From assembly GCA_017436525.1 (NCBI GenBank), contig JAFSCX010000047.1, forward strand, positions 53,198 to 117,197: a DNA stretch of 64,000 nucleotides, written 5' to 3'. Positions within the stretch are counted from its first letter, which is position 1; the number at the start of each line of letters is the position of its first letter. A model generated the notes under the pieces. It saw only the letters and a program-made list of their open reading frames with translations, was not told the DNA's origin and searched no databases. The stretch comes from Clostridia bacterium (GTDB lineage: Bacteria > Bacillota > Clostridia > Oscillospirales > QAKW01). Below are positions 17,821 to 62,150 of the stretch, one piece after another. A program made the position numbers and the translations under genes.

Positions 17821-17900
17821 TATCCTTCCGGTTGTTTTATATGTATTACGCCGTTCCGGCTCTCGCTGGAGGGTATCTTTATACAGGTATCGTATCCGTC

Positions 17901-24083: not shown

Positions 24084-24168
24084 TGGTGCGAAAGACGGGA
24101 CTTGAACCCGTACGGTGTAAACCACACGCCCCTCAAACGTGCGCGTCTGCCAGTTCCGCCACTCTCGC
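24084..24168 (-). tRNA. tRNA-Leu (anticodon GAG), type II, CCA encoded
   Basis: Sense strand reads GCGAGAGTGGCGGAACTGGCAGACGCG-CACGT-TTGAGGG-GCGTG ... GGGTTCAAGTCCCGTCTTTCGCACCA. Confidence 0.9.
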
Positions 24169-35613: not shown

Positions 35614-38127
35614 TTATTCTTGATTGCTTTTTGCAGTATCGGCACCATCGCCCACAAGGCCGAGCTCCCTTGCGGCCTGCTCCCGCATTTTATATTTCAG
35701 GATTTTACCTGCAGCATTCATGGGGAAGCTATCAACAAAGGAAATATACTTTGGAACCTTATGGCGCGCCATACTTGCTTTAATAAACTCAGTCATTTCC
35801 TCGGCAGATACACTACCGGGCTCCTTGAGAATAATGCAAGCCATAATTTCTTCGCCGTATTTTTTATCCGGCACGCCAATTACCTGGACATCTTTCACAT
35901 CGGGATGGGTATAAATAAATTCTTCAATCTCTTTGGGATAAATATTTTCACCACCGCGAATGATCATATCCTTCAAGCGGCCGGTAATACGATAATTTCC
36001 GTGCTCATCACGGCAAGCCAAATCCCCGGAATGAAGCCATCCTTCTGCGTCCACTGTATCAGCAGTAGCCTGAGGCATCTTATAGTATCCCTTCATTGTA
36101 TTATAACCTTTAGAGCAAAATTCGCCATTCACACCGCTGGGCAGCTCTGCTCCTGTTTCCGGATCAACGATTTTGCATTGGACATGCGGGAAAGCATAGC
36201 CTACTGTATCGGTTCTTACTTCCAGGCTATCCGTCCATGCAGACATGGTAGAGCCGGGTGCCGATTCTGTCTGACCATAGACGCTTACAATCCCCGTCAT
36301 ATTCATTTCATCCGGCTGGGCCGCCCGCCGCATCAGCTCAGGCGGACATCCCGCTCCTGCCATAATGCCGGTGCGCATATGGGAAAAATCAGTCTTGCGA
36401 TAGTCCGGATGGTTAAACATCGCAATGAACATCGTAGGGACACCGTTAAAGCAGGTGATCTTTTCCTGATTGATGCAAGCCAACGATTGCTTTGCCGAAA
36501 AATAAGGCAACGGACAAATGGTGGCACCATGGGTCATGGAAGAGGTCATGGAAAGCACCATGCCAAAGCAATGGAACATCGGCACTTGAATCATCATGCG
36601 ATCGGCCGTCGATAACCCCATTCGATCGCCGATACACTTCCCATTGTTGACTACATTATAATGAGTCAGCATTACACCCTTCGGAAATCCGGTTGTACCG
36701 GACGTGTATTGCATATTGCAGACATCATCAGGCCGCACCGCAGCCGCCATTTGGGCAACGGTCTCAGAGCTGACCATCGATGCTCTCTCCATCGCTTCCC
36801 CAAAGGTCAGGCAACCGGGGAGCTTAAAGCCAACGGTGATCACATTGCGCAAAAAGGGTAATCTCTTGCAATGCAAGCTCTCCCCCGCCTTGCTTTTTTC
36901 CATTTCCGGGCAAAGCTCTTGGATAATACTCTTATAATTGGAATCAAGGCAGCTTTCGATCATAATCAGAGTATGGGTATCGGACTGCCGCAGCAGATAT
37001 TCTGCCTCATGAATTTTATAAGCAGTATTCACCGTTACCAATACAGCGCCGATCTTGGTAGTGGCCCAAAAAGCGATATACCATTCCGGCACATTGGTAG
37101 CCCATACCGCCACCTTACTGCCCGCTTTAACACCCATAGATACAAGGGCGCGAGCAAAAGTATCTACATCTTTTTGAAATTCTTTATAGGTCCTTGTATA
37201 ATCCAGCGTTGTATACTTAATGGCATATTGATCCGGAAATTCCTCTGCCATGCGATCCAATACTTGAGAGAAGGTCAGATCAATCAGCTCATCCTTTTTC
37301 CATACATATTGGCCGGAACCGTCATGATTGAAATACAAACTTTTTTTCTTTCCCCGCGGATTATCATAGCGATTCATATAATTGATAAAATACGGAAAAA
37401 TTACTTCCATATCCTTGAGATCTTCAATCCAATCGGGCTTCCATTCCAAGGAAATAAAGCCATTATAATTTACAGAAGAAAGGGCAAGCATAAATTCCGC
37501 AATGGGAGCAGTCCCCTCGCCGATCAGATCATATTCGCCCTGATCATCGGAATCCCGCAGATGAACATGGCGCACATAATCGCCCAGGTTTTTGATGGTT
37601 GCATCTGCTTTTTCGCCAAAATCCCGAAAGGGATGATGGACATCCCATAAAACCGCCAGCTCATCGCAAGCAAATTCATCCAATAATTTCCGCAATCTTG
37701 CCGTATCGGCATAAATTCCGCTGGTTTTAATTAAAATGGTTACTTCTTTTTCCCTTGCATCTGCAATCAACGTTTTAAGATTCTCTTTTACAGCATCTTC
37801 ATTCTCTTTTAATGCCACAACTGCTACATAAGGCACGCGAGCATTGCGAGCGACCTCCATCAAAGTTTGCAGATAAGAGATACATTCAGGATCTGATGAA
37901 AGATCATAAGAGGTATCAAAACAAGGGATGGTGAGATTCTTTTCTTTCAACTGCCGCACTGTAGCGGCGGCCTGATATTTATGAAACGGACCGCTGCGAT
38001 CCATCATAGGATCAAATTTCGGCAAATTATAAACTTCGATACCGCCGAATCCCATATCGGCGGCCACAGCCACGGTATCCTCCCAGCTCAGATCGTTCCA
38101 ACCACGGGTGGAAAAGGAGAGATTCAT
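35614..38127 (-). CDS. Fusion protein: N-terminal xylose-isomerase-like TIM barrel (sugar-phosphate isomerase/epimerase family) + C-terminal AMP-forming acyl-CoA ligase
   Basis: 837 aa. Residues 1 to about 270 show the AP-endonuclease-2/TIM-barrel pattern (FGGIEVYN ... HVHLRD ... ISLEWKP). The rest has adenylation motifs YTSGTTGFPKGVMLTH, GYNTMKGYY, WLHSGDL, GRLKDMIIRGGENIYPKEIE and AAGKILK. Its start overlaps the upstream gene's stop by 4 nt. Confidence 0.8.
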   Translation of the reverse strand: MNLSFSTRGWNDLSWEDTVAVAADMGFGGIEVYNLPKFDPMMDRSGPFHKYQAAATVRQLKEKNLTIPCFDTSYDLSSDPECISYLQTLMEVARNARVPYVAVVALKENEDAVKENLKTLIADAREKEVTILIKTSGIYADTARLRKLLDEFACDELAVLWDVHHPFRDFGEKADATIKNLGDYVRHVHLRDSDDQGEYDLIGEGTAPIAEFMLALSSVNYNGFISLEWKPDWIEDLKDMEVIFPYFINYMNRYDNPRGKKKSLYFNHDGSGQYVWKKDELIDLTFSQVLDRMAEEFPDQYAIKYTTLDYTRTYKEFQKDVDTFARALVSMGVKAGSKVAVWATNVPEWYIAFWATTKIGAVLVTVNTAYKIHEAEYLLRQSDTHTLIMIESCLDSNYKSIIQELCPEMEKSKAGESLHCKRLPFLRNVITVGFKLPGCLTFGEAMERASMVSSETVAQMAAAVRPDDVCNMQYTSGTTGFPKGVMLTHYNVVNNGKCIGDRMGLSTADRMMIQVPMFHCFGMVLSMTSSMTHGATICPLPYFSAKQSLACINQEKITCFNGVPTMFIAMFNHPDYRKTDFSHMRTGIMAGAGCPPELMRRAAQPDEMNMTGIVSVYGQTESAPGSTMSAWTDSLEVRTDTVGYAFPHVQCKIVDPETGAELPSGVNGEFCSKGYNTMKGYYKMPQATADTVDAEGWLHSGDLACRDEHGNYRITGRLKDMIIRGGENIYPKEIEEFIYTHPDVKDVQVIGVPDKKYGEEIMACIILKEPGSVSAEEMTEFIKASMARHKVPKYISFVDSFPMNAAGKILKYKMREQAARELGLVGDGADTAKSNQE

Positions 38128-39533
38128 ATTTCCTCCTCCTCATAAACAATTTTGTTCAATGCGCTCAGATATGCATTGATACCGGCGCACACAATATCAG
38201 TGGAAATGCCGCGGCCGGAATATAATTTTCCGCCGCTCCGCAAGCGCACAATCGTTTGCCCCATTGCTTCTCGCCCTTCAGTAACTGCTTTCAACTGAAA
38301 ATCATCCAATTCATAATGACGGCCGGTGATGCTTTCAATGGCGCGGAAAGCAGCATCAATCGATCCATCCCCCAAAGAGACGCCTTCCAAAATCTGCCCC
38401 TCTTTTTTCAACCGCATATGCGCAGTTGCAGCAATGGTATTGCCCGAATTGATTACATAGGTTTCCAATTGATAAGTTGGCGGGACCTGCATAGCTGCAG
38501 AGGCAACAATTGCATCTAATTCGCGGATTCCGACGCGCTCTTTCTTTGCTGCAATTCGGCGGAATGCCTCCACCACCTTAGGTTGATCTTCTTCTGAAAG
38601 ATCATATCCCAGCTGCTCTACCGCCTTCAAAATAGACTCGGCTTGATCATGGAATGTAAGATAAACGCTCTCGTCATCTTGACGAGCACCGCCATCAAAG
38701 GTGGATGATTTTTTATGCTCAGCATCACATATCCATCTGATCTGATCCATTGTGCGGCTCAATTGCGCCACCGAAACATCGGTAGTAATATTCATTGCAG
38801 CGCTGCGAGCATGGATAATCTTAGCGATCTTTGCCAAAGAGGCAGTCCCTTGCGGATAGGCGGCCGCCTTGATTTCCAATGCCCCCTGCTCCACAGCAGC
38901 GATCGCACAAGCGTCGGCCAAAAATAACGCATCATTGCAGCTGACACCAAGCTTCACATCCTTTAAGATCGGGATCGCCTTAAATAAATCGGAAATAAAG
39001 CCCGCAAATTCCTGAGGAAGCATAGTACCTGCCGAATCACATATGGTTACCGTTGCGGCACCGGCTTCCACCGCCGCATGGATTACAGTATTCAAAAATG
39101 CAGGATCACTGCGGGTGGCATCATCGGCCACAAACTCCACATCCTCGCACAAAGCGCTGCAAGCAGCAACATTCTGCCGAATCTCTTCCAGCATCGCTTC
39201 CGGTTTTTTATGATATAAATATTCCATTTGGACCGAAGAAATAGGGGCAAAAACCTGCAACCGAGGATGTTTTGCACTCTTAAGAGCGTTCCATACTGTA
39301 TCTACATTTCCCTGCTTCAGTGCAACCGGCACAGCTACAACGCTGTTTTTTACAGCAGCGGCTATGGATTTTACGCGCAACGCATCAGTTCTTGAATCGC
39401 CTACCCCTTCTAATTCAATCACAGAGACACCAAGATGATCAAGTAGCTTTGCCAGCTCAATCTTCTCGCGGAAAGATAATAATTCTCCTGCCGCTTGCCT
39501 CATGGTTACATCACTGATTCTGATTTGTTTCAT
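38124..39533 (-). CDS. 2-isopropylmalate/homocitrate synthase-family protein with LeuA-dimer C-terminal domain; canonical metal ligands apparently substituted
   Basis: 469 aa with an HMGL-like barrel plus a C-terminal regulatory domain (GDGSIDAAFRAIESITG ... GISTDIVCAGINAYLSALNKI). The N-terminus reads ISDVTMRQAAGE where family members have DTTLRDGEQ. LGVSCNDALFLADA sits where H-x-H-N-D is expected. Confidence 0.75.
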   Translation of the reverse strand: MKQIRISDVTMRQAAGELLSFREKIELAKLLDHLGVSVIELEGVGDSRTDALRVKSIAAAVKNSVVAVPVALKQGNVDTVWNALKSAKHPRLQVFAPISSVQMEYLYHKKPEAMLEEIRQNVAACSALCEDVEFVADDATRSDPAFLNTVIHAAVEAGAATVTICDSAGTMLPQEFAGFISDLFKAIPILKDVKLGVSCNDALFLADACAIAAVEQGALEIKAAAYPQGTASLAKIAKIIHARSAAMNITTDVSVAQLSRTMDQIRWICDAEHKKSSTFDGGARQDDESVYLTFHDQAESILKAVEQLGYDLSEEDQPKVVEAFRRIAAKKERVGIRELDAIVASAAMQVPPTYQLETYVINSGNTIAATAHMRLKKEGQILEGVSLGDGSIDAAFRAIESITGRHYELDDFQLKAVTEGREAMGQTIVRLRSGGKLYSGRGISTDIVCAGINAYLSALNKIVYEEEEI

Positions 39534-39552: not shown

Positions 39553-39835
39553 TAAAAAAGCCCCGAGGCCAAAAAGCCTCAGGGACGAAAATGCATTTCG
39601 CGGTACCACCCTGTTTATCTTCGCTAAAAGAAGATCACTCGTCGGACTTCCATCAAAGTCCCAGCCCGTAACGGGGGCAACCGTGCTCCATTACAGCCGC
39701 TAATATACGGTTTCACAGAGCCGACTCAGGAAGGAGACTGCACCATCTTTCGCACCGATTCACACCAACCATCGGCTCTCTGAAGCGTCCAAAAGGAGCA
39801 GATTTTCCGTCAACATCTTTGGTTTATGAAAGAAT
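39553..39835 (-). promoter_or_regulatory. T-box leader, specifier read as CUC (Leu), with terminator
   Basis: On the minus strand the promoter is TTGACA-17-TTAAAT. The K-turn is GAU-GUU-GA-C-GGAA / UUCC-U-GA-GUC, followed by an AGAGA box and a distal loop GGTTGGTGTGA. The specifier loop is U-CUC-C (CUC = rc of 39734-39736) and the T-box is AACAGGGTGGTACCGCGAAAT. The terminator is CCCTGAGGC ... GCCTCGGGG + T6 (39553-39584). Confidence 0.75.
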
Positions 39836-39924
39836 TTAACCATAAAGCAAATAATTTGTCAAGAAAAATTTTGGTTTTTTCAAAAAAAGGTTTGACAATT
39901 CAAAAAAAATGTGTTAAAGTTTGA

Positions 39925-40196
39925 AAAAAGTGTTAGAAATGGCTAAGACGAAGACGGCAAGGTTCATCGGATCTTCAGAGAATCGACGGTTGGTGCAAGT
40001 CGATGATCGGTAACCAATTTGCCCATCACTTCCGAGCCGGTGAGCCGAGTGATTATCACCAGGCTTTCCCGTTTGCCCGCGTTAAGGGATAGGGATTATT
40101 GGATCCTGAAGCGATGGTATGATTACCATAATTTGAGTGGTACCGCGGGTATTGATTTTGCTCGTCTCAAGAGTTTTCTTGAGGCGATTTTTTATT
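39925..40196 (+). promoter_or_regulatory. T-box leader, specifier read as AUC (Ile), with terminator
   Basis: The promoter is TTGACA (39892-39897)-17-TAAAGT (39915-39920). The K-turn is GGC-UAA-GA-C-GAAG / CUUC-C-GA-GCC. AGAGA lies at 39977-39981 and the distal loop GGTTGGTGCAA at 39988-39998. The specifier loop is C-AUC-A (AUC at 40025-40027) and the T-box TTGAGTGGTACCGCGGG at about 40133-40149. The terminator is CGTCTCAAG ... CTTGAGGCG + T-run (40163-40196). Confidence 0.8.
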
Positions 40197-40217
40197 TTCT
40201 AAGAAAGGATGACAACA

Positions 40218-42482
40218 ATGAGTAACACGAATCCTACAACCCAATTAATGGACATCGCGGCCCGTATCCGCGATATGCGTGATATTTTGGGCTATAGCAC
40301 ACAAAAGATGGCAGAGCTTACTGAAGTCTCCGAGGGTGATTATCGGACCTATGAGACGGGAACGGTTGATTTGCCCTTCACCTTTTTGCATAAATGTGCC
40401 GCTGCATTCGGCGTAGAAATTACTGTACTCTTAGAAGGGCGCAGCGCCAAGCTTTCCGGCTATACCATTACAAGAAAAGGAAAAGGACTTGTAACTGCAA
40501 GCGAAGATGGCATCACCATTCAGGATATGGCACCCATGTTTCGCAAAAAGCTTGCCACTCCCTATTGGGTTACTTATCAATATTCCGAAGATCTGCAAAA
40601 TAAACCCATCCATACCGTAACCCATGCAGGCCAAGAGTTTGATATGGTCATTAAAGGTACCATGCGGATCCGTGTCGGAGATCATGAAGAAATCCTGCGG
40701 GAGGGAGACAGCATTTTCTATAAATCCTCCACTCCCCATGGTATGATTGCTATCGATGGGCAGGATTGCGTATTTCTCGCCATTATTATGGCAAGCGACA
40801 CAACCGATCAAAAGCTCTTTATCGGCTCCGGCAAAAAGGCTGAACACGAAAATCTCCTTTGCCATAAATATATCAAAACGGAAGAAGACGATAACGGAGC
40901 GCTCAAGGCTATTTCCTTTGAAGATGCCGATACCTATAATTTTGCTTTCGATACAGTAGATGCAATTGCTCGGCGTGAGCCCGAAAAGCTTGCAATGCTC
41001 CATGTGGCCAACGATATGACCGAGCGCCGTTTCACCTTCAAGGATATCAAAGATGCATCCTCTCAAAGCGCCAACTATTTCAAGTCCCTCGGCATCAAAC
41101 GCGGCGATCGTGTCATGCTGGTGCTCAAGCGGCATTATCAATTCTGGTTTGCAATTCTCGGCCTACATAAACTCGGTGCCATCGCAATTCCCGCCACCAA
41201 TCAGCTGGTTGAAAAAGATTTCAGTTACCGTTTCCAATCTGCAGGAGTCAGTGCGGTCCTTTGCACTGCCGATGGGGATACCGCCCATCAAATTGAATTG
41301 GCAGAGCAGCAAACAGGCATTACCCTCAACAAGATCCTTGTCGGCGATGATCGAGAGGGATGGCATAATTATAATAAGGAATATCCCCTTTTCTCCCGCC
41401 GCTATGTGCGCGAGGAAAATGCGCCTTGCGGCGATGATCCCATGCTGATGTTCTTCACCTCCGGTACCACCGGCTATCCCAAGATTGCAGTCCATAGTTA
41501 TAAATATGCTTTAGGCCATTATGTAACCGCAAAATATTGGCACATGGCCGAAAAGGATGGCTTGCACTTTACGATCTCCGAAACCGGCTGGGGAAAAGCA
41601 CTTTGGGGCAAGCTTTATGGCCAATGGCTCTGCGAAGGCGCCGTATTCACTTATGATTTCGATCGTTTTGATGCAGAGAAAATCCTACCCATGTTTGCAA
41701 AATACAATATCACCACCTTCTGCGCTCCCCCCACTATGTATCGCATGCTGATCAAGCAGGATCTCAGCCGCTTTGATCTATCCTCTATCCATCATGCAAC
41801 CACTGCCGGTGAAGCGCTGAACCCCGAAGTATTCTATCAATTTGAAAAAGCCACCGGCCTGCGCATCGCAGAAGGCTTTGGTCAGACAGAGATGACCTTG
41901 GGCATCGCAAATCTGGTAGGCACCATGCTCAAGCCCGGCGCTATGGGTAAGCCTGTGCCCGGTTATGGAATTGATCTTGTTGATCCCGATGGTAATCCCG
42001 TAGCCGATGGCGACAACGGCGAGATCGTTATCCGCACCGAGCCGAAGCCCACTTGCGGTATTTTCCTGGGATATTACAACGAACCGGAAAAGACTGCTGC
42101 TGTATGGCATGATGGTCTTTACCATACCGGTGATCTTGCGTGGCGCGATGAGGACGGCTACTATTGGTATGTAGGCCGTGCAGATGATGTCATCAAATCT
42201 TCCGGCTACCGCATCGGGCCCTTCGAAATCGAAAGCACCATCATGGAGCTTCCCTATGTCTTGGAATGTGGCGTTTCTGCCGCTCCGGATGAAGTCCGCG
42301 GGCAGGTCGTTAAGGCAAGCATTGTCTTGGTAAAAGGCACCGAACCCACCGAGCAGCTCAAAAAAGATATCCAAAACTATGTCAAAACGCGAACTGCTCC
42401 CTATAAATATCCCCGCATTGTAGAGTTCCGCGATGAATTACCCAAAACCATCAGTGGAAAGATTATGCGTAACAAATTATAA
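40218..42482 (+). CDS. HTH(XRE)-cupin-acyl-CoA synthetase (AMP-forming, medium/short-chain type) fusion, paralog 1
   Basis: About 754 aa. The N-terminal HTH_3 reads RDILGYSTQKMAELTEVSEGDYRTYETG and the cupin reads HAGQEFDMVIKGTMRIRVGDHEEILREGDSIFYKSSTPHGM. Adenylation motifs are MFFTSGTTGYPK, DTGW-like ETGWGKALWG, YHTGDLAWRDEDGYYWYVGRADDVIKSSGYRIGPFEIE and ISGKIMR. An alternative ATG lies at 40209. Confidence 0.85.
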   Translation: MSNTNPTTQLMDIAARIRDMRDILGYSTQKMAELTEVSEGDYRTYETGTVDLPFTFLHKCAAAFGVEITVLLEGRSAKLSGYTITRKGKGLVTASEDGITIQDMAPMFRKKLATPYWVTYQYSEDLQNKPIHTVTHAGQEFDMVIKGTMRIRVGDHEEILREGDSIFYKSSTPHGMIAIDGQDCVFLAIIMASDTTDQKLFIGSGKKAEHENLLCHKYIKTEEDDNGALKAISFEDADTYNFAFDTVDAIARREPEKLAMLHVANDMTERRFTFKDIKDASSQSANYFKSLGIKRGDRVMLVLKRHYQFWFAILGLHKLGAIAIPATNQLVEKDFSYRFQSAGVSAVLCTADGDTAHQIELAEQQTGITLNKILVGDDREGWHNYNKEYPLFSRRYVREENAPCGDDPMLMFFTSGTTGYPKIAVHSYKYALGHYVTAKYWHMAEKDGLHFTISETGWGKALWGKLYGQWLCEGAVFTYDFDRFDAEKILPMFAKYNITTFCAPPTMYRMLIKQDLSRFDLSSIHHATTAGEALNPEVFYQFEKATGLRIAEGFGQTEMTLGIANLVGTMLKPGAMGKPVPGYGIDLVDPDGNPVADGDNGEIVIRTEPKPTCGIFLGYYNEPEKTAAVWHDGLYHTGDLAWRDEDGYYWYVGRADDVIKSSGYRIGPFEIESTIMELPYVLECGVSAAPDEVRGQVVKASIVLVKGTEPTEQLKKDIQNYVKTRTAPYKYPRIVEFRDELPKTISGKIMRNKL

Positions 42483-42514
42483 TCCGATCCCTGATAATCA
42501 ATTTGAGGTGTATT

Positions 42515-44803
42515 ATGGAACAACAAATAACAGGAATGACTTATAAAATCAGAGAAATGGCGGCGCGCATTAAAGAATTGCGTGAAATCACAGGCCTGAC
42601 CGTTGAGGAAATGGCCGAGCGCACCGGCATCAGTGTAGAAGAATATATCCAAAGCGAAGCGGGCAACCGCAATCTCAGCGTATCGTTCTTATACCACTGC
42701 ACCCTCTCCTTCGGCGTTGATATGGGCGACCTTTTGGAAGGCCGCAGCCCCAAGCTGCGCTCCTATGCCCTGACCAGAAAAGGGCAAGGCCAGCGTATTG
42801 AAGAAGCGCACCATATGGTAGGCTATAACCTTGCGGCAGATTTCCGCAACCGTATCGCCCTCCCCTTGTATATGGAGCTCAACTACCGCCCCGGCGCTGA
42901 ATACGAAGATATTGAGCTGACTACCCATGAAGGGCAGGAATGTGATATTGTGATCCGCGGCCATATGCGGATCCAGATCGGCGGGCATACCGAAATTTTG
43001 CACCCCGGCGATACCATTTATTATGATTCTTCAACCCCTCACGGTATGATTGCTGTAGATGGAGAAGATTGCGCTTTTTATGCCATTGTACTTCGGAATC
43101 TTGCCGCCCGCGCGGAAGAGCAGGCGGCCGCCGAAGCTAAGCCTATTCCCAAAGCGCAGCAGGATGAAGGGAAGGAACGGATCTATCGTAATTTCATCCT
43201 CCCCACCGAGCAGGATGGTAAGCTGACCGCTATTACATTCAAAAATGAAGAAAAATTCAATTTTGCCTACGATATTGTAGACGCTCTGGCAAAACGCAAG
43301 CCGGAAAAGTTGGCAATGATTCACCTGCGTGAAAGCGGAGAAGAGCACCGTTTCACCTTCAACGATATAAAAAAAGAATCTGCCCGAGCCGCCAATTACT
43401 TCAAATCTTTGGGCATTCAAAAAGGCGACCGTGTCATGCTGGTGCTCAAGCGGCACTATCAATTCTGGTTTTCAATCTTGGGCTTGCATAAATTGGGAGC
43501 AGTAGTCATTCCCGCTACCAATCAATTGCAAGAAAAAGATTTCACCTATCGATTTGAAGCAGGCAATGTAAAAGCCATTGTCTGCACAGCAGACGGTGAT
43601 GTTGCAGCGGCAGTAGATGCGGCCGCAGAAAAAACGCCTCATCTCACCACCAAAATTATGGTAGGTGGTTCTCGGGAAGGCTGGCATAATTTCAATGAAG
43701 AATATACCATGTATAGCAGCAGATTCGCCCGCACAGAGGATACTCCCTGCGGATCGGATCCCATGCTGATGTTCTTCACCTCCGGCACCTCCGGATATCC
43801 CAAATTGGCAGCACACAACTATAAATATCCTTTGGGCCATTTCATCACCGCCAAGTATTGGCATCAGGTGAATCCCGATGGCCTGCACCTTACCATTTCC
43901 GATACAGGATGGGCCAAATCCCTTTGGGGCAAGCTCTATGGCCAATGGCTGTGCGAGGCGCCCATCTTTGTATATGATTTCGATCGATTTGACGCAGAGA
44001 AGATTCTGCCCCTCTTCAAGAAATACGGCATCACCACTTTCTGCGCACCGCCCACCATGTATCGTATGCTGATCAAGCAAGATCTCAGCCGCTTTGATCT
44101 TTCATCCATTGAGCACGCGTCCATCGCCGGTGAAGCCCTCAACCCTGAGGTATTCCGCCAATTCAAAAAAGCAACCGGCTTAGAGATTATGGAAGGCTTC
44201 GGCCAATCCGAAAGCACCTTGATTATCGGTAATCTCAGAGGATCCAGCCATAAGGTTGGCTCGATGGGTAAGCCTGTCCCCTTATATGACATTCATCTTT
44301 TGGATGCAGAAGGCAATGAAGTGGCAACCGGTGAAAACGGTGAGGTTTGCATCAATATCAAAGATGGTCTCCCCTGCGGCCTCAGCTATGGCTATGAAGG
44401 CAACGCCGAAACCACCGCCGAGGTATGGAAGGATGGCTGGTATCATACCGGTGATCTTGCGTGGAAAGATGAGGACGGTTTCTTCTGGTATGTGGGCCGC
44501 GTAGATGATGTCATTAAATCTTCCGGCTACCGTATCGGGCCCTTTGAAATTGAAAATGTTATTATGGAATTGCCCTATGTCTTGGAATGCGGCGTTTCTG
44601 CCGCTCCCGATGAAGTCCGCGGGCAGGTCGTAAAAGCCAGCATTGTGTTGGTTAAGAATTTCAAGGGTACCGAAGAATTGAAGAAGGAAATTCAAAATTA
44701 CGTAAAATCCCGCACCGCTCCCTATAAATATCCTCGCATTGTGGAGTTTAGAGAGAGTCTGCCGAAGACTACCAGCGGTAAAATTATTCGCAAGCAACTG
44801 TAA
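42515..44803 (+). CDS. HTH(XRE)-cupin-acyl-CoA synthetase fusion, paralog 2
   Basis: About 762 aa with the same three-module layout as paralog 1. I estimate about 65-70% aa identity by eye. The ATG at 42515 follows GAGGTG. Confidence 0.85.
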   Translation: MEQQITGMTYKIREMAARIKELREITGLTVEEMAERTGISVEEYIQSEAGNRNLSVSFLYHCTLSFGVDMGDLLEGRSPKLRSYALTRKGQGQRIEEAHHMVGYNLAADFRNRIALPLYMELNYRPGAEYEDIELTTHEGQECDIVIRGHMRIQIGGHTEILHPGDTIYYDSSTPHGMIAVDGEDCAFYAIVLRNLAARAEEQAAAEAKPIPKAQQDEGKERIYRNFILPTEQDGKLTAITFKNEEKFNFAYDIVDALAKRKPEKLAMIHLRESGEEHRFTFNDIKKESARAANYFKSLGIQKGDRVMLVLKRHYQFWFSILGLHKLGAVVIPATNQLQEKDFTYRFEAGNVKAIVCTADGDVAAAVDAAAEKTPHLTTKIMVGGSREGWHNFNEEYTMYSSRFARTEDTPCGSDPMLMFFTSGTSGYPKLAAHNYKYPLGHFITAKYWHQVNPDGLHLTISDTGWAKSLWGKLYGQWLCEAPIFVYDFDRFDAEKILPLFKKYGITTFCAPPTMYRMLIKQDLSRFDLSSIEHASIAGEALNPEVFRQFKKATGLEIMEGFGQSESTLIIGNLRGSSHKVGSMGKPVPLYDIHLLDAEGNEVATGENGEVCINIKDGLPCGLSYGYEGNAETTAEVWKDGWYHTGDLAWKDEDGFFWYVGRVDDVIKSSGYRIGPFEIENVIMELPYVLECGVSAAPDEVRGQVVKASIVLVKNFKGTEELKKEIQNYVKSRTAPYKYPRIVEFRESLPKTTSGKIIRKQL

Positions 44804-44814
44804 AAGGTGATATT

Positions 44815-45477
44815 ATGGAGCATAAACGTCTAACCCTCTTTGCCGGCCATTACGGAAGCGGAAAAACCAATATAGCGGTCAACTATGCCTTGATGCTGGC
44901 AAATGAGGGAAAGAAGGTTTGCATTGCAGACTTGGATATTGTAAACCCCTATTTTCGCACAAAGGATAGTGCAGACGAATTGGAAAAAGCAGGTGTGGCA
45001 TTAGTTTCGCCGCAATTTGCCAATTCAAATGTTGATCTGCCGGCTCTTCCGGCCGAAGCCTATCGATTGGTAACAGATAAAGCAACCTATGGTATAATGG
45101 ATATCGGCGGAGATGATCGGGGCGCCTATGCCTTGGGTCGATATGTCCCTTCCATTATTGAGGAGAATTGCTATCGCTTAGTATATGTAGCCAACTGTTA
45201 TCGCCCTCTGACCCGTACCCCCGAGGAGGCGTTGGAGGTCATGAGAGAAATCGAAGCAGCATGCGGATTGCAGTTTACCGATATCATCAATAATTCCAAT
45301 CTCGGAGAAGAAACCACAGCCGAAACGCTGCTGGCATCCCTTGATTATATCGATCAGCTTTGCAAAATCAGCGGGCTTCCCCTCTTTGCCCACACCGCAA
45401 TTCCGCCGGTTGCTGCGGAATTATCAAAAGAATTAACCCCTGTAATTTCTCTGCATCTGCAGAAGAAAATATTTTGA
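44815..45477 (+). CDS. P-loop NTPase (MinD/ParA/CooC-like SIMIBI class), function unknown
   Basis: 220 aa with a deviant Walker A, GHYGSGKTNIAVNYAL, and CIADLDIVNPYFRT. Confidence 0.65.
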   Translation: MEHKRLTLFAGHYGSGKTNIAVNYALMLANEGKKVCIADLDIVNPYFRTKDSADELEKAGVALVSPQFANSNVDLPALPAEAYRLVTDKATYGIMDIGGDDRGAYALGRYVPSIIEENCYRLVYVANCYRPLTRTPEEALEVMREIEAACGLQFTDIINNSNLGEETTAETLLASLDYIDQLCKISGLPLFAHTAIPPVAAELSKELTPVISLHLQKKIF

Positions 45478-45534
45478 TCCACCACCTAATAGGTCGTATG
45501 CCCGACCCAGTGAAAACCCAAGGAGGAATCTTAA

Positions 45535-45741
45535 ATGGCAAAAGTAACATTCCGAACCGATTGGTGCAAAGGCTGTGGCCTGTGCGTCGATGCCTGCCCC
45601 AAAAAATGCTTGGCAATCGATTCCGGCACCATCAACAAAAAGGGATATTCTCCCGCTGTAATGACCCAACCGGATAATTGCATCGGTTGCGCTTTTTGCG
45701 CCACCATGTGCCCCGATTGTATCATCACGGTCGAACGATAA
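45535..45741 (+). CDS. 2-oxoacid:ferredoxin oxidoreductase delta subunit (2x[4Fe-4S] ferredoxin)
   Basis: 68 aa with two CxxCxxCxxxCP motifs (CKGCGLCVDACP, CIGCAFCATMCP). AAGGAGG RBS upstream. Confidence 0.85.
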   Translation: MAKVTFRTDWCKGCGLCVDACPKKCLAIDSGTINKKGYSPAVMTQPDNCIGCAFCATMCPDCIITVER

Positions 45742-45753
45742 AGGAGGCGCAAC

Positions 45754-46815
45754 ATGGCAGAAAGAGTATTAATGAAGGGCAACGAAGCCATTGCGGAAGC
45801 TGCTATTCGCGCAGGCTGCCGCCATTACTTCGGCTACCCCATCACCCCGCAAACGGAAATTGCTGCATATATGGCAAAGAAAATGCCGAAAATCGGCGGT
45901 GTTTTCCTTCAGGCTGAAAGTGAGATCGCATCCATTAATATGGTATATGGCGCGGCGGCAGCAGGTGTAAGAGTAATGACCTCCTCCTCCAGCCCGGGTA
46001 TTTCCCTTAAAGCAGAAGGATTGAGCTATATTGCAGGATCTGATGTGCCCGCATTGGTTGTCAATGTTCAGCGCGGCGGCCCCGGCTTAGGCGGTATTCA
46101 GCCCTCTCAATCCGATTATTTCCAAGCCACAAAAGGCGGCGGCCATGGCGATTATAAAATGATCGTTTTGGCGCCCGCTTCCGTGCAGGAAATGGCAAGC
46201 CTCACCATTAAAGGTTTTAATTTGGCAGATAAATATCTGATGACCTCCATGATTCTGGCAGATGGTACAATCGGCCAAATGATGGAGCCCATCACCTTTG
46301 AAGATGCAGAAATCGAGAATTACGATAAGCCTTGGGCGCTGACCGGAACCAACTGCGAAAGAGCCCATAATATTGTAAATTCCCTGTATCTGAAGCCGGA
46401 TGAGCTTGAGATGAAAAACATCGAGCGCTTTGAGCGCTATAAGCTGATCGAAGAGCGGGAAGCAATGTGGGAAGAATATATGATGGAAGATGCTGAATTT
46501 TGCGTAGTCGCCTTTGGTATCGCCGCCCGTGTAGCTAAAAACGCGGTTGTAGCCGCCCGTAATGAAGGCATTAAGGTTGGCCTTATTCGCCCCATTACCC
46601 TATGGCCTTTCCCCAAAGATGCTTTACTGGCTGCTGCCGATCAGGTTAAGGGCTTTATCTCTGTAGAGCTGAATATGGGTCAGATGATCGAAGATATCCG
46701 CTTGTATACCCAATCCAAAAAACCGGTTGGCCTTTGCAACCGTTGCGGCGGTATGATTCCCGAGCCGGATGAAATTTTAGAGAGCATTCGCAATGCTCAG
46801 AAAGGAGTGTTCTGA
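45754..46815 (+). CDS. 2-oxoacid:ferredoxin oxidoreductase alpha subunit (VorB/KorA-type)
   Basis: 353 aa: MKGNEAIAEAAIRAGCRHYFGYPITPQTEI ... Confidence 0.85.
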   Translation: MAERVLMKGNEAIAEAAIRAGCRHYFGYPITPQTEIAAYMAKKMPKIGGVFLQAESEIASINMVYGAAAAGVRVMTSSSSPGISLKAEGLSYIAGSDVPALVVNVQRGGPGLGGIQPSQSDYFQATKGGGHGDYKMIVLAPASVQEMASLTIKGFNLADKYLMTSMILADGTIGQMMEPITFEDAEIENYDKPWALTGTNCERAHNIVNSLYLKPDELEMKNIERFERYKLIEEREAMWEEYMMEDAEFCVVAFGIAARVAKNAVVAARNEGIKVGLIRPITLWPFPKDALLAAADQVKGFISVELNMGQMIEDIRLYTQSKKPVGLCNRCGGMIPEPDEILESIRNAQKGVF

Positions 46816-46817
46816 TC

Positions 46818-47579
46818 ATGGCAGTCGTATTTAAGAAACCCAACGCTTTGGCAGACATTCCTCTGCACTATTGCCCCGGTTGCCCCCACGGCATTATTCA
46901 CCGCTTAGTTGCGGAAGTAATGGATGAGCTGGGAATCGAAGGGAAAGCCATCGGTGTAGCCCCTGTGGGCTGCGCAGTAATGGCATACGATTATTTTGCA
47001 TGCGATATGATCGAAGCTGCCCATGGCAGAGCGCCTGCTGTGGCAACCGGTATCAAGCGCTCTCGGCCGGAAAATATTGTCTTTACTTATCAAGGGGATG
47101 GCGATCTGGCCTCTATTGGTATGGCCGAGACCGTACATGCCGCAGCGCGCAACGAGAACATTACCGTTATCTTTGTCAACAATGCAATCTATGGTATGAC
47201 CGGCGGTCAGATGGCTCCTACCAGCCTCCCCGGTCAGGTAACCCAGACCTCTCCCTATGGTCGGGATGTAAACCATTGCGGATGGCCCATCAAGGTCTCC
47301 GAAATGCTTTCTACCCTCGACGGACCGGAATATATTGCACGCGTTGCTGCAAACAATGTTAAAAATATTAACCAAGCAAAGAAAGCCATCAAAAAGGCCT
47401 TCCAAAACCAAATTGATGGAAAAGGCTTCTCCCTTGTAGAGGTCGTCTCCGCTTGCCCCACAAACTGGGGTATGACGCCTCAAAAAGCGCTGGAATGGGT
47501 AGAAAGCGATATGCTCCCCTACTATCCGATCGGCGTTTATAAGGACAGAACTGCTGCAAAGGAGGCTGAGCAAAAATGA
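46818..47579 (+). CDS. 2-oxoacid:ferredoxin oxidoreductase beta subunit (TPP-binding)
   Basis: 253 aa with HYCPGCPHGIIHR and a GDGD-type TPP motif (YQGDGDLASIG). Confidence 0.85.
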   Translation: MAVVFKKPNALADIPLHYCPGCPHGIIHRLVAEVMDELGIEGKAIGVAPVGCAVMAYDYFACDMIEAAHGRAPAVATGIKRSRPENIVFTYQGDGDLASIGMAETVHAAARNENITVIFVNNAIYGMTGGQMAPTSLPGQVTQTSPYGRDVNHCGWPIKVSEMLSTLDGPEYIARVAANNVKNINQAKKAIKKAFQNQIDGKGFSLVEVVSACPTNWGMTPQKALEWVESDMLPYYPIGVYKDRTAAKEAEQK

Positions 47580-48112
47580 AGACAACTCAAATTCTGATTG
47601 CCGGCTTCGGCGGGCAGGGAATCTTATTTGCCGGCAAATTTTTGGCATATAAAGGATTGACAGAAGAATTGCAGGTATCTTGGCTTCCTTCCTATGGCCC
47701 CGAGATGCGCGGCGGCACCGCAAACTGCAATGTAATTCTATCCGACACTCCCGTCGGCAGCCCGATCATTACCCAACCGGATGTCCTGATCGCCATGAAT
47801 CTTCCTTCCCTGCAAAAATATGTAGATACCGTCGTATCGGGTGGGCAGATTTATGTAGACAGCGCCCTGATTGATGAAAAGGTAGCCCGCGAAGATGTAG
47901 AAGTTTTTTATATCCCCGCCACTCAGATCGCTAAAAGCGAAGGAATTGCAACGCTGGCCAATATGATTATGATCGGCCATCTCTTGGAAAATAATCCTCA
48001 GCTTTCTTTTGATGGCACAGAAGAAGTTGTAAAAAAATTAGTCCCCCCCGCAAAGGCAGCGCTGGTTGAATTAAATCTTAAAGCGCTGACTCTCGGAAAA
48101 GAATACAAATAA
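47576..48112 (+). CDS. 2-oxoacid:ferredoxin oxidoreductase gamma subunit
   Basis: 178 aa with ILIAGFGGQGILFAGKFLA and GPEMRGG. It overlaps the beta-subunit stop by 4 nt. Confidence 0.85.
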   Translation: MKTTQILIAGFGGQGILFAGKFLAYKGLTEELQVSWLPSYGPEMRGGTANCNVILSDTPVGSPIITQPDVLIAMNLPSLQKYVDTVVSGGQIYVDSALIDEKVAREDVEVFYIPATQIAKSEGIATLANMIMIGHLLENNPQLSFDGTEEVVKKLVPPAKAALVELNLKALTLGKEYK

Positions 48113-48159
48113 TTGTAAATTATGCCCGTCGAGGCAAGAATATTTTGGAGGTAAATACT

Positions 48160-49191
48160 ATGAATGCAATGACAGAAATGACCAACTATCGCCATGAAAA
48201 GGTGCTCTTTGTCAACAACGAGAAAGCCGGCCTTAAGGCAATTATCGCTGTCCACAACACCAACCTTGGCCCCGCCATCGGCGGTTGCCGCCTTTTCCCT
48301 TATGAATCTTATGACGCAGCTCTTTTCGATGTATTGCGTCTTTCTCGCGGTATGTCCCATAAAAATGCTGTTGCCGGCCTGCCCCATGGCGGCGGTAAGG
48401 GTGTAATCATTGCTGATCCTTCTCAAAAGACTGAAGCAATGTTTGAAGCCTTTGCTGAGGCAGTAGAGAACCTGGGTGGCCAATATATCACCGCCGAGGA
48501 TGTAAATACCACCTGCGATGATGCTATGGTAATGCTTCGCAAGACCAAGCATCTCTGCGGCCTGCCCATGAATAGCGGCGATCCCTCCCCCTTCACCGCA
48601 AGAGGTGTATGGCAGGGCATCAAGGCCACTGCAAAGGTTGCTTTAGGCAGCGATAATCTGGATGGCCTTACCATCGCTGTGCAGGGTCTTGGTAAAGTTG
48701 GTTATGATCTTTGCCGTCTGCTCCATGAAAGCGGCGCAAAGTTGATTGTTGCCAATCGGAGCAATAAGGAAATGCTGGCGAAAGCGCAGGCGGAATTTGG
48801 CGCTAAGGTTGTGGATACCAAAGACATTATGGCTCAGGAATGTGATATCTTCTCCCCCAATGCCATGGGCGCTATTCTGAACCCCAATACCATCCCCACC
48901 CTGCGCTGCAAGGCGGTTGCCGGTGGTGCCAACAATCAGATTCTGGATGATGCTTCCGGCCTTGCACTGAAGGCACGCGGCATCTTCTACGCTCCTGATT
49001 TTGTCATCAATGGTGGTGGTGTTATCAATGCTGCTGCCGAGGTAGACGGCCCCTACAACAAAGAGGTTGTTCTTGAGAAGGTAGATAATATTTATAATAC
49101 CATCGAGCATATCCTCACTGAGTCCAAGAAGACCGGTGAGCCTGAGGGTGTTATTGCAACTCGCTATGCAGAGTCTATCATCTATCGTTAA
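48160..49191 (+). CDS. Leucine/valine/isoleucine (Glu/Leu/Phe/Val family) dehydrogenase
   Basis: About 343 aa with the catalytic-Lys region LPHGGGKGVIIADP and the Rossmann motif VQGLGKVGYDL. The ATG at 48160 follows GGAGGT; the track start at 48145 is a TTG. Confidence 0.85.
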   Translation: MNAMTEMTNYRHEKVLFVNNEKAGLKAIIAVHNTNLGPAIGGCRLFPYESYDAALFDVLRLSRGMSHKNAVAGLPHGGGKGVIIADPSQKTEAMFEAFAEAVENLGGQYITAEDVNTTCDDAMVMLRKTKHLCGLPMNSGDPSPFTARGVWQGIKATAKVALGSDNLDGLTIAVQGLGKVGYDLCRLLHESGAKLIVANRSNKEMLAKAQAEFGAKVVDTKDIMAQECDIFSPNAMGAILNPNTIPTLRCKAVAGGANNQILDDASGLALKARGIFYAPDFVINGGGVINAAAEVDGPYNKEVVLEKVDNIYNTIEHILTESKKTGEPEGVIATRYAESIIYR

Positions 49192-49211
49192 AAATTAGGT
49201 TATCAACATAT

Positions 49212-49250
49212 AAATCCCCTTAGGGTCAATCTCTTGCCCTAAGGGGATTT
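49212..49250. terminator. Bidirectional terminator ending the T-box(Ile) operon
   Basis: 14-bp stem AAATCCCCTTAGGG ... CCCTAAGGGGATTT. Confidence 0.85.
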
Positions 49251-49266
49251 ATTCATATCATTTAAT

Positions 49267-49593
49267 TTATAAAAGTTCCTTTAATTTATCAAGAAATGCA
49301 TTTTCGCCCCAAGTGTTCAATTTGAAGAAAACCGCTTGGCTTCCTCCGGCTGTTATCGCAGAAAGGTAAATCGGACTATCACCATTTTGAAAGAGTGTTA
49401 TGCTCATGCTGACGCGATTTCCGCCCGCGTAGCTGAATCGTTCAAATACGCGAACACTGCATCTGGCATCACCGCTCTGAAAATCGCTGGACTCTTCAAG
49501 AGAGGCAGAAATACTTCCATTTAATATTCCTGCTTCAATTTTTTGAAGCCAGTGCGAAAAATCACCGTTCAGCGAACATTGTAATTTAGCCAT
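49267..49593 (-). CDS. 108-aa hypothetical protein
   Basis: The ATG at 49593 is preceded by GGAGGA: MAKLQCSLNGDFSHWLQKIEAGILNG ... The promoter TTGATT-17-TATAAT lies upstream. The upstream part of the 176-aa track ORF lacks an RBS. Confidence 0.5.
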   Translation of the reverse strand: MAKLQCSLNGDFSHWLQKIEAGILNGSISASLEESSDFQSGDARCSVRVFERFSYAGGNRVSMSITLFQNGDSPIYLSAITAGGSQAVFFKLNTWGENAFLDKLKELL

Positions 49594-49674
49594 ATGATAT
49601 CCTCCATGTATCTTAATAAAAACTTTTTCGATATTATTATTTTTGATTATTATAGCATAAAAGCGGCGAAAAAT

Positions 49675-49853
49675 CAATGCAAAGCATTGTATGTAATCCG
49701 CAACTTGTTGCGGAATGTAATCCACCGTAGGTGGTATGTAATCAATCTGAAGGAAGAAACATACAAAGCTTACGCTTTGATGACATACCGTTTGCAACGC
49801 AAACGGATTACATACTCGCTCACGCGAGATTACATACCAATCCTTCGGATTGG
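49675..49853. repeat. Mirror-symmetric array of 7 distinct GC-rich hairpins separated by conserved heptamers (ATGTAAT x3, then ATTACAT-type x3)
   Basis: Hairpins: CAATGC/GCATTG 49675-49689, CCGCAA/TTGCGG 49698-49713, CCACC/GGTGG 49722-49734, CAAAGC/GCTTTG 49764-49779, CCGTTTGC/GCAAACGG 49788-49806, CTCGC/GCGAG 49815-49828 and CCAATCC/GGATTGG 49837-49853. Heptamers: ATGTAAT at 49691, 49715 and 49736; ATGACAT at 49780; ATTACAT at 49807 and 49829. Confidence 0.9.
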
Positions 49854-60166: not shown

Positions 60167-60643
60167 TTACATTGTTATGTCCTCAAATTTACAGGGTATT
60201 ACGAGGGGAAGATCCTGCGGATCAAGAAGGATCTGCGCACCGATGCGGCCGCCGCTGATGATAATTTCATCAAAAAGAATAGCCGTCTCATCAAATACTG
60301 CGGGAAATTGCTTTTTCAGCCCAATGGCGGTGCAGCCCCCTCTCACATAGCCGGTAAGAGAAAATAGTTCCTTTACGGGGATTAATTCCACCGCCTTCTC
60401 CCCTACTGCTTTTGCTGCCTTTTTAAGATCCAGCTCTTCCGCAACAGGAAGAGCAAATACATAATGCGCCCCGCTTTTCCCCGCTGCAATCAGCGATTTG
60501 AAGGAGCGCTCTTTTTCTTGCCCCAACTGCTCAGCGATATGAACACCATCTATGAATTCATCACATTCATAAAGATTCATTCGAAAAGGAATCTTCTTTT
60601 GCTCCAGAATTCGCATGGCATTGGTTTTTACTTCCTTGCCCAT
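60167..60643 (-). CDS. ybaK: Cys-tRNA(Pro)/Cys-tRNA(Cys) deacylase YbaK/EbsC family
   Basis: 158 aa: KTNAMRILEQKKIPF ... KSLIAAGKSG ... GGCTAIGLKK. Its ATG shares one base (60643) with the tyrS stop. Confidence 0.8.
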   Translation of the reverse strand: MGKEVKTNAMRILEQKKIPFRMNLYECDEFIDGVHIAEQLGQEKERSFKSLIAAGKSGAHYVFALPVAEELDLKKAAKAVGEKAVELIPVKELFSLTGYVRGGCTAIGLKKQFPAVFDETAILFDEIIISGGRIGAQILLDPQDLPLVIPCKFEDITM

Positions 60644-61863
60644 TATTTTGCAGAAATTTTGATAAACTTTTTCTTGCCGCGCTTTAATACAAAGCTATTT
60701 TCTACCTGCTTCTTGGTGAAGGTCTTTTTCACATCCAAAACCTTCTCCCCTTCTACAGTTACACCGCCCTGCTCTACAGCACGACGCCCTTCGGAACGGG
60801 AAGGTACAAGCCCGCTTTTAACCAGCAAGGTGATTACATCGACTGCTCCGTCGGTATAATCGCCTTCTTCCACTACATAGGTAGGCATATTCTCCGCATT
60901 TCCGGCGCCAAAGAGCGCGCGAGCGCTTTCCTCTGCCTTGCGCGCTTCTTCCTCGCCATGCACAAGAGCTGTAAGCTCATAAGCAAGGATTTCTTTTGCG
61001 CGATTAAGCTGGCTTCCTTCCCATGTATCCATCTCATTGATCTGCTCCAGCGGCAGGAAAGTCAGCATGCGGATGCACTTTAATACATCGGCATCATTTA
61101 CATTTCTCCAATATTGATAGAAATCAAAGGGAGAGGTTTTATTGGGATCCAGCCATACTGCGCCGCCGGCAGTTTTACCCATCTTCTTTCCTTCGCTGGT
61201 CAAAAGAAGGGTGATGGTCATCGCGTGAGCATCTTTGCCCAGCTTTCTGCGAATCAGCTCTGTACCACCCAGCATGTTGCTCCATTGATCATTGCCGCCA
61301 AATTGCATATTGCAGCCATATTTTTGGAAAAGATAATAGAAATCATAAGATTGCATGATCATATAGTTGAATTCCAAGAAGGAAAGGCCTTTTTCCATTC
61401 TCTGCTTATAACACTCTGCACGAAGCATATTATTTACAGAGAAACAAGCGCCGACCTCTCTCAATACATCTACATAATTGAGATCCATCAACCAATCGGC
61501 GTTATTGACCATCTGCGCTTTTCCTTCACCGAATTCAATAAAGCGCTCCATTTGCTTCTTAAAGCAATCGCAATTATGCTGAATGGTCTCTTTGGTCATC
61601 ATAGAGCGCATATCGGTACGGCCGGAAGGATCGCCGATCATCGCGGTACCGCCGCCGATCAGAGCGATAGGGCGGTTGCCTGCCATCTGCAGCCGTTTCA
61701 TCAAGCAAAGCGCCATAAAATGGCCAACATGCAGGCTATCGGCAGTGGGATCAAAGCCAATATAGAAGGTGGCTTTCCCATTATTTACAAGCTCTCTGAT
61801 TTCCTCTTCATTGGTTACCTGAGCAATCAGCCCACGGGCAACAAGTTCGTCATAAATCTGCAT
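60643..61863 (-). CDS. tyrS: Tyrosine--tRNA ligase
   Basis: About 406 aa from the ATG at 61863 ([24 protein letters not shown]). It has the HIGH motif LHVGHF, the KMSKS-type KMGKT and a C-terminal S4 domain. The track ORF start at 61962 lies inside the T-box leader. Confidence 0.95.
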
Positions 61864-61869
61864 GATTCT

Positions 61870-62150
61870 CATCCTTTCAATATAAAAGCCCTCTGCTCCC
61901 CAATCGGGAGCAGAGGGCAAAAATTCTTTTGCGGTACCACCTCTGCGGCAAATACTTCTCACAAAGTATTCCTCAGCGCGTTCCTTATCAACGCCGCCCT
62001 GCTAACGGAAGGCTTCCGCTGCCGCCTACTCTTCCTTCGGGGCAGATGCTCCGGGATGTATTCGCAAAGCACCTTCTTCTCCGCCTTACACCAGCCGGCG
62101 GCTCTCTTTGCAAGAAAAATGCTGCTACTTGTTCCCTTCTCAGCTTGAAT
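61870..62150 (-). promoter_or_regulatory. T-box leader upstream of tyrS, specifier UAC (Tyr)
   Basis: On the minus strand the promoter is TTGACA-17-TAAAAT, followed by an AGAGA box and a distal loop GGCTGGTGTAA. The specifier context is GAA-UAC-A-UCCC and the T-box is GAGGTGGTACCGCAAAAG. Confidence 0.8.

Follow-up and report, generated by a model that had tools for sequence, protein, structure and literature searches.

That rumen and gut anaerobes and methanogens form amino acids from branched-chain volatile fatty acids by reductive carboxylation has been known from labelling work since the 1960s, and gut Oscillospirales, cellulolytic ones included, have for decades been recognized as requiring or using such acids, the feeding of which is being explored in ruminant nutrition. 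To our knowledge, the genes for the use of branched-chain acids and the way in which reversible 2-oxoacid oxidoreductases are set to one direction have so far mostly been guessed. T-box leader RNAs are known to induce genes on shortage of an amino acid, and MbcS of Staphylococcus aureus activates 2-methylbutyrate and isobutyrate for fatty-acid synthesis. The locus described here lies in a stretch of 64,000 nucleotides (nt), called the window in the following, on contig JAFSCX010000047.1 of a Clostridia bacterium affiliated with the Oscillospirales (assembly GCA_017436525.1). It consists of an isoleucine-specific T-box leader followed by genes for two acyl-CoA ligases, a P-loop nucleoside triphosphatase (NTPase), a four-subunit 2-oxoacid:ferredoxin oxidoreductase of the VOR type and a leucine dehydrogenase (LeuDH). 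This operon probably serves the salvage of isoleucine from 2-methylbutyrate and would be induced by uncharged tRNA-Ile. The leader RNA with its specifier, the genes behind it and the conservation of these features are documented first, followed by the assignment of the enzymes and the alternatives to be weighed.

The isoleucine T-box leader and its gene string

An Rfam covariance-model scan of the window detected three T-box leaders (RF00230, gathering threshold 93 bits), one of which precedes the gene string. The features of the operon are, in window positions:

39892-39920, + strand: sigma-70-type promoter-like site, TTGACA-17-TG-n-TAAAGT, with an extended -10 TG
39936-40172, + strand: isoleucine-specific T-box leader RNA (RF00230, 99.8 bits against 93, E 8.7e-21, full model, positions 1-219)
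40025-40027, + strand: specifier codon AUC (Ile), placed by the covariance-model alignment
40162-40197, + strand: intrinsic terminator of the leader, an 11-bp stem (40162-40187) followed by the T-run TTTTTTATTT; conserved in related leaders
40209-42482, + strand: ACS1, XRE-type helix-turn-helix (HTH), cupin and AMP-forming acyl-CoA synthetase (Pfam AMP-binding 208 bits, AMP-binding_C, Cupin_2, HTH_31)
42503-44803, + strand: ACS2, a paralogue of ACS1 with the same three-part architecture, 60% identical to it
44815-45477, + strand: SIMIBI-class P-loop NTPase of 220 amino acids (aa), with weak ParA/CbiA matches
45535-45741, + strand: VOR delta, a 2x[4Fe-4S] ferredoxin with two CxxCxxCxxxCP motifs (Fer4 families)
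45754-46815, + strand: VOR alpha, VorB type (POR_N and PFOR_II; NCBIfam NF005507, 540.8 bits against a cut-off of 399, a subfamily model whose name derives from annotation and not from an assay)
46818-47579, + strand: VOR beta, binding thiamine pyrophosphate (TPP) (TPP_enzyme_C; 2-oxoacid:ferredoxin oxidoreductase beta families)
47576-48112, + strand: VOR gamma (Pfam POR 113.6 bits)
48145-49191, + strand: leucine/isoleucine/valine dehydrogenase of the LeuDH family (ELFV_dehydrog_N and ELFV_dehydrog)
49210-49251, no strand assigned: strong hairpin at the operon end (dG -30.7 kcal/mol, z -7.2)

The leader is an ordinary member of RF00230 with an AUC (Ile) specifier, and tRNA-dependent read-through is predicted for it. 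On its 3' side, the specifier loop has the sequence ...GCCC-AUC-A-CUUC, of which CUUC pairs in the Rfam alignment with GAAG just 3' of the K-turn region. AGAGA is found at 39977-39981, the distal loop is GGUUGGUG, and the T-box core is UGAGUGGUACCGCGGG with a UGGU bulge, in which N = U implies A as the discriminator base of the tRNA. The 5' arm of the terminator is at the same time the 3' arm of the antiterminator (common sequence CGUCUCA; the antiterminator pairing is seen in the Rfam alignment), the two structures thus being mutually exclusive, and the terminator stem covaries among the 71 leaders compared below.

For a comparison with other genomes, an alignment of the HTH-cupin ligase was scanned against one genome per GTDB species, which yielded at least 590 confirmed stretches, and the proteins of the window were mapped onto the best 80 of them. 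These 80 loci all come from metagenome-assembled genomes of the gut or rumen, which belong to Oscillospiraceae, Acutalibacteraceae, Faecousia, Ruminococcus and relatives. A T-box core motif is present 70-280 nt 5' of the first ligase gene in 70 loci, with AGAGA about 165 nt farther 5', and these leaders were aligned together with that of the window (n = 71). The specifier columns read ATC in all 71 leaders, while the preceding base is C, T, A or G and the following one A, C or G; such a constant triplet in a loop that varies elsewhere is the pattern expected from selection for a single tRNA identity. CTTC, GAGTGGTACC and the UGGU bulge are likewise invariant throughout, the last of these in keeping with A as the discriminator base. 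Compensatory double changes occur in 30 of the 49 pairs predicted by RNAalifold, indicating that the leader RNA is under structural selection. When the leaders of seven diverse related loci were rescanned with Rfam, four reached the gathering score (94-99 bits). The reading of the specifier column is validated by the neighbouring leucine-specific T-box described further below, since the equivalent column there varies, over 47 related loci, among the synonymous codons CUC, CUG and CUU; these leaders, too, are variable in the base that follows the specifier. Among the related loci, 39 were inspected for a promoter, and sites of the form TTGAC(A/T)-17-TAnAAT lie just 5' of the leader in them.

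Eight open reading frames (ORFs) follow the leader on the same strand, with gaps of -4 to 57 nt. The start of ACS1 is most likely the second ATG, at 40218, giving a protein of 754 aa as in database records, and homologues of 343 aa suggest that LeuDH starts about 5 codons downstream of the annotated position. Wherever the sequence of the best 80 loci extends far enough, it shows the same order of leader, one or two ligases, NTPase and VOR delta-alpha-beta-gamma; ACS2 is absent from about nine of the loci. Terminator-like sites inside the gene string are weak, with stems of 5-6 bp, and are no more frequent than in shuffled sequence. The T-tail of the hairpin at 49210-49251 is weak on the + strand; a convergent DUF6054 gene (49267-49797, - strand) shares this hairpin with the operon end.

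Most of what a first-pass annotation had proposed for this region agrees with these data. Its complete T-box leader is recovered by the full RF00230 model with all motifs and the terminator, and its AUC specifier, followed by A and the lower helix, falls on exactly the three nucleotides given by the covariance-model alignment. The domains of the two HTH-cupin ligases, the P-loop protein, the four VOR subunits and the dehydrogenase are as it had listed them, a strong hairpin does lie after the dehydrogenase, where it had placed the only strong terminator, and the expected co-occurrence of cluster and leader holds for at least 70 related loci of the best 80. Its count of nine genes has to be corrected to eight, which is also the sum of its own list.

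Enzymes of the proposed route and alternative readings

The best solved relative of both ligase catalytic domains is MacsMa of Methanosarcina acetivorans (PDB 3ETC), with 52% identity and, for ACS1, 625 bits. The preferred substrate of MacsMa is 2-methylbutyrate, with which both half-reactions are completed to 2-methylbutyryl-CoA, while many other acids, including propionate, are converted to the adenylate only, with no CoA step (PMC10455477). A Gly replaces the Trp of acetyl-CoA synthetase in the pocket of MacsMa, and Trp259 is critical for substrate binding (PMC10455477). When aligned to 3ETC, ACS1 and ACS2 both show Gly at the pocket position of Acs Trp414, in the motif EGFGQ(T/S)E, and the Trp of their AKYW motif corresponds to Trp259 of MacsMa. 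A preference for unrelated substrates such as aryl acids, which the first-pass annotation had named as the outcome that would speak against its reading, is not indicated, as the ligases are closest to the 2-methylbutyrate-preferring MacsMa and not to aryl-acid ligases. The best-scoring named NCBIfam family for both is MbcS (NF047394), with 428.1 and 432.9 bits; at about half of the equivalog cut-off of 850, the identity of either ligase as MbcS was rejected.

The subunit set of the VOR is complete, comprising alpha with POR_N and PFOR_II, beta with the TPP domain, gamma with POR, and delta with 2x[4Fe-4S]. Its substrates would be branched-chain 2-oxoacids and acyl-CoAs, an assignment supported by the context: of the 47 loci with sequence past the VOR gamma gene, 37 continue with LeuDH or with a branched-chain aminotransferase (BCAT) of class IV. 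The slot directly after gamma is occupied by LeuDH in 11 and by BCAT in 26 of these loci; BCAT lies within 1.5 kb of gamma in six further ones, where a gene for a carbon-nitrogen hydrolase is inserted, and neither enzyme is found in the remaining four. The dehydrogenase of the window has its closest solved relatives in LeuDH structures (6acf, 352 bits; 1leh, 322), followed by the tryptophan (285), phenylalanine (183) and glutamate (at most 83) dehydrogenases, and an identity as the tryptophan dehydrogenase ScyB was rejected at 360 bits against a cut-off of 600. The BCAT of the related loci was identified by NF009897 (482 bits against 307) and ilvE_II (399 against 250). LeuDH and BCAT are unrelated proteins whose one shared activity is to interconvert branched-chain 2-oxoacids and amino acids, and their exchange in one slot therefore argues for a branched-chain 2-oxoacid as the product of the VOR step. 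With either of them as the last gene, all three steps of the route are encoded in the operon. The VOR type assumed by the first-pass annotation is thus in accordance with both the score of the alpha subunit and the occupancy of this slot.

Loci in which LeuDH and BCAT displace each other include L005, L010, L024, L029, L037, L045, L059 and L077. The carbon-nitrogen hydrolase, a member of the nitrilase/omega-amidase superfamily, is placed between gamma and BCAT in one clade (L028:10219-10998, L033:18350-19135); as a speculation, it could remove 2-oxoglutaramate, if glutamine were the amino donor.

In the mechanism proposed, transcription from the promoter around 39892-39920 would normally stop at the leader terminator at 40162-40197. 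Uncharged tRNA-Ile(GAU) would pair with the AUC specifier and, by its free NCCA end, with the UGGU bulge, leading to formation of the antiterminator and to transcription of all eight genes. The AMP-forming ligases would spend ATP to activate 2-methylbutyrate to its CoA ester, perhaps along with another short acid, and the VOR would carboxylate 2-methylbutyryl-CoA reductively with CO2 and reduced ferredoxin, yielding 3-methyl-2-oxopentanoate. From this, LeuDH would form L-isoleucine with NH4+ and NAD(P)H, a step probably taken over by BCAT in most related genomes. We infer which way the flux runs, which acid is used and that read-through extends over the whole operon. Induction by a T-box on shortage fits synthesis and not degradation, and AMP-forming ligases are driven toward the acyl-CoA, whereas in fermentative catabolism this step falls to phosphotransacylase/kinase pairs or ADP-forming synthetases. 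Of the anabolic branched-chain route suggested by the first-pass annotation, the direction is supported in this conditional sense, but its extension to all three pairs of acid and amino acid is narrowed to 2-methylbutyrate and isoleucine.

Several points weigh against this assignment. VOR, LeuDH and BCAT work in both directions and, as a rule, on all three branched-chain substrates, so that sequence alone fixes neither substrate nor direction, and all the organisms compared here are uncultured metagenome-assembled genomes. Three of the seven diverse leaders rescanned stay under the Rfam gathering score, though all motifs are present in them, and the base after the specifier (window position 40028, column 108 of alignment A4) is C or G in many leaders, while a purine is usual. 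As to the ligases, the match to the MbcS equivalog is far under its cut-off (428/433 vs 850), an identity of 52% to MacsMa need not entail the same substrate preference, and a pathway with a single substrate does not account for two paralogues.

The presence of two ligases that are 60% identical would be explained if the operon had a broad scope, converting isobutyrate, isovalerate and 2-methylbutyrate to valine, leucine and isoleucine, with the paralogues dividing the acids between them and isoleucine merely being the amino acid sensed. The VOR, LeuDH and BCAT families are indeed generally active on all three substrates, and the LeuA-like gene under leucine T-box control, which is almost always adjacent, could use 2-oxoisovalerate from the same VOR. 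However, the specifier is that for isoleucine in 71 of 71 leaders and never that for valine or leucine, some nine related loci have just one ligase, and the closest characterized ligase, MacsMa, favours 2-methylbutyrate, which makes the broad scope rather unlikely. Control by isoleucine only would also fit a supply of 2-oxobutyrate, formed by the VOR from propionyl-CoA and passed on to IlvBN, IlvC and IlvD encoded elsewhere, with BCAT or LeuDH acting last. Propionate is abundant in the gut, the standard pathway also ends in BCAT, and MacsMa makes propionyl-adenylate (PMC10455477), but does not complete the CoA step with it (PMC10455477). Moreover, the alpha subunit belongs to the VorB family, the three middle enzymes are missing from the operon, whereas the route from 2-methylbutyrate is complete within it, and ilv genes stand beside the cluster in none of the 80 loci (as judged from the surroundings of the cluster). 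Such a use of propionate is therefore regarded as quite improbable.

Two further readings take the enzymes out of amino acid synthesis and are less credible again. The operon might provide 2-methylbutyryl-CoA as primer for anteiso fatty acids, either from the free acid via the ligases or from isoleucine via LeuDH or BCAT and an oxidative VOR, and MbcS, the nearest named NCBIfam family, serves exactly such a supply of primers. Yet the ligases score at about half of the MbcS cut-off, the consumption of isoleucine while tRNA-Ile is uncharged would be counter-productive, and no fatty-acid synthesis genes occur in the cluster in the loci examined, leaving this function highly improbable. An oxidation of isoleucine to 2-methylbutyrate for energy, as in Stickland-type metabolism, could draw on LeuDH or BCAT and the VOR as the first two steps of oxidative branched-chain fermentation, these enzymes being reversible. 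It is hardly conceivable here, because induction by starvation, as brought about by a T-box, runs counter to the needs of a catabolic pathway and because the ligases are AMP-forming and do not represent an ATP-conserving phosphotransacylase/kinase pair or ADP-forming synthetases. Isoleucine salvage from 2-methylbutyrate is thus retained as the probable function of the operon.

Accessory components and neighbouring units

The NTPase gene is located between the ligase gene or genes and the VOR genes in every one of the best 80 loci that is long enough, and its product shows the conserved motifs GHYGSGKT, DLDIVNPYFR, DIGGDDRGA and NNSN. An AF2 model built from database homologues (pLDDT 86) resembles the generic folds of SRP-GTPases and HypB (of the ATPase type) with TM values of 0.5-0.6, a profile search of the PDB gave matches to MinD and ArsA at the level of the Walker A motif, and the 120 database homologues listed are all unnamed or termed 'MinD-like'. 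No conserved cysteine column exists in an alignment of 57 orthologues. A NifH-like electron-transfer ATPase and an Fe-S carrier of the Mrp/ApbC type were ruled out on these grounds, so that the P-loop protein of the first-pass annotation stands, but not as an Fe-S or NifH-type ATPase. The cysteine-free NTPase could instead be a nucleotide-dependent partner or assembly factor specific to a biosynthetic VOR.

Both ligases carry an N-terminal module of about 215 residues, consisting of an XRE-type HTH and a cupin domain (window 40209-40853 and 42503-43162, + strand), in which His139, Glu143 and His177 of the cupin (ACS1 numbering) are invariant and may form a metal or ligand site. A single-sequence search of the PDB with this module gave no match, and a profile search retrieved the HTH-cupin regulator 1Y9Q as well as the HTH-cupin enzyme HppE, which shows that this architecture alone is no proof of DNA binding. 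No conserved operator palindrome was found in 40 promoter regions (those of the window and 39 related loci), the -35 and -10 elements being their sole conspicuous features. By analogy to BirA, the ligases could be bifunctional enzyme-regulators sensing the branched-chain acid or its adenylate, with the His139/Glu143/His177 triad perhaps acting as the sensor and adding a signal of substrate availability to the tRNA signal. That the NTPase and the HTH-cupin modules together serve to reverse, when needed, a VOR that is normally catabolic is conceivable, but we consider it unlikely.

Further units of the window are related to the operon by position or by their type of control:

39578-39822, - strand: divergent leucine-specific T-box, specifier CUC (Rfam 114.5 bits)
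38124-39533, - strand: LeuA-like synthase, similar to isopropylmalate synthase (IPMS-like) and below all equivalog cut-offs
35614-38127, - strand: fusion of a xylose-isomerase-like TIM barrel and an acyl-CoA ligase, 837 aa
61910-62150, - strand: third T-box, specifier UAC, in front of tyrS (Rfam 97.9 bits)
60643-61962, - strand: tyrS (TIGR00234, 431 bits)

The unit of LeuA-like synthase and ligase fusion, both genes of which are under the leucine T-box in the window, is linked to the isoleucine cluster in most related loci, where three arrangements occur, the unit being divergent, 5' of the cluster and co-directional with it, or 3' of it. As the leucine unit and the isoleucine operon travel together, they look like one module of branched-chain amino acid supply with two tRNA sensors. 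In L037, L038 and L041, the LeuA-like gene follows directly after BCAT inside the isoleucine operon, with no T-box of its own. A gene for tRNA-Leu(GAG), the anticodon of which exactly matches the CUC specifier of the leucine T-box, is present at 24084-24168 (- strand). The tyrS leader, to which the first-pass annotation had compared the specifier geometry of the isoleucine leader, is indeed a T-box with a UAC specifier, and the T-box adjoining the isoleucine leader on the opposite strand is the one for leucine. Apart from these units, the window contains an ORF of 1976 aa at 11983-17913 (- strand), and among the related loci a Gut-1 small RNA was detected in a Ruminococcus metagenome-assembled genome, about 9 kb 5' of the cluster (L059:283-355, Rfam 51.5 bits against 50).

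Comparison with described systems

In the literature covered, which did not extend to older regulon surveys, so that a prior mention is possible, no paper was found that links a T-box to an operon of VOR and acyl-CoA ligase genes. Neither was a paper found that defines the genes for the conversion of 2-methylbutyrate to isoleucine, and VOR/ligase salvage targets are not mentioned in the open surveys of T-box regulons. If the assignment is correct, physiology known for sixty years would be connected to a defined, widespread and testable set of genes for isoleucine salvage from 2-methylbutyrate. The HTH-cupin ligase, present in at least 590 species-level genomes, might then serve as a sequence marker for uncultured gut bacteria cross-feeding on the amino-acid fermentation products of others. 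The operon would further represent a natural case in which regulation alone separates anabolic from catabolic VORs, offering a possible genome-level cue to their direction, and it draws attention to the SIMIBI NTPase and the HTH-cupin-ligase fusion as two conserved components that are as yet uncharacterized.

A comparison at the level of the single enzymes shows close counterparts for most parts of the route. MacsMa shares 52% identity with the window ligases over the whole catalytic domain, including the same pocket Gly and the alternative Trp, but lacks their N-terminal XRE-HTH and cupin module; the substrates of the window ligases are predicted ones. MbcS feeds fatty-acid synthesis and has no link to a VOR, whereas the window ligases are encoded beside a VOR and score far below the MbcS cut-off. 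The VOR has the same subunit set as the four-subunit VORs of anaerobes and archaea, with its alpha subunit above the VorB cut-off. While the known VORs are usually discussed as catabolic enzymes, context and regulation point to synthesis here, and a SIMIBI NTPase gene is always located 5' of the VOR genes.

The three steps encoded in the operon are those of classical reductive carboxylation, and the hosts are Oscillospirales of the ruminant and human gut, including Ruminococcus. The classical work established the chemistry with no dedicated regulated operon, to which an amino-acid-specific RNA switch, an NTPase and HTH-cupin fusions are now added. As to its control, the leader belongs to the same RNA family as those of the T-box regulons for branched-chain amino acids in Firmicutes, which comprise ileS, ilv-leu, leuA and transporters, and shares with them the specifier, the UGGN bulge and the competition of terminator and antiterminator, as well as the logic by which a shortage of charged tRNA turns on the supply of the amino acid. 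It differs from them in the base after the specifier, which is not a purine in many members of the present lineage, and in its targets, which instead of a tRNA synthetase, a transporter or the genes of de novo ilv synthesis are putative salvage genes for an acyl-CoA ligase and a ferredoxin-dependent oxidoreductase. Thus, the RNA family and the chemistry were known before, while the operon would extend the T-box regulon to a new type of function, namely salvage by a ferredoxin-dependent and CO2-fixing route.

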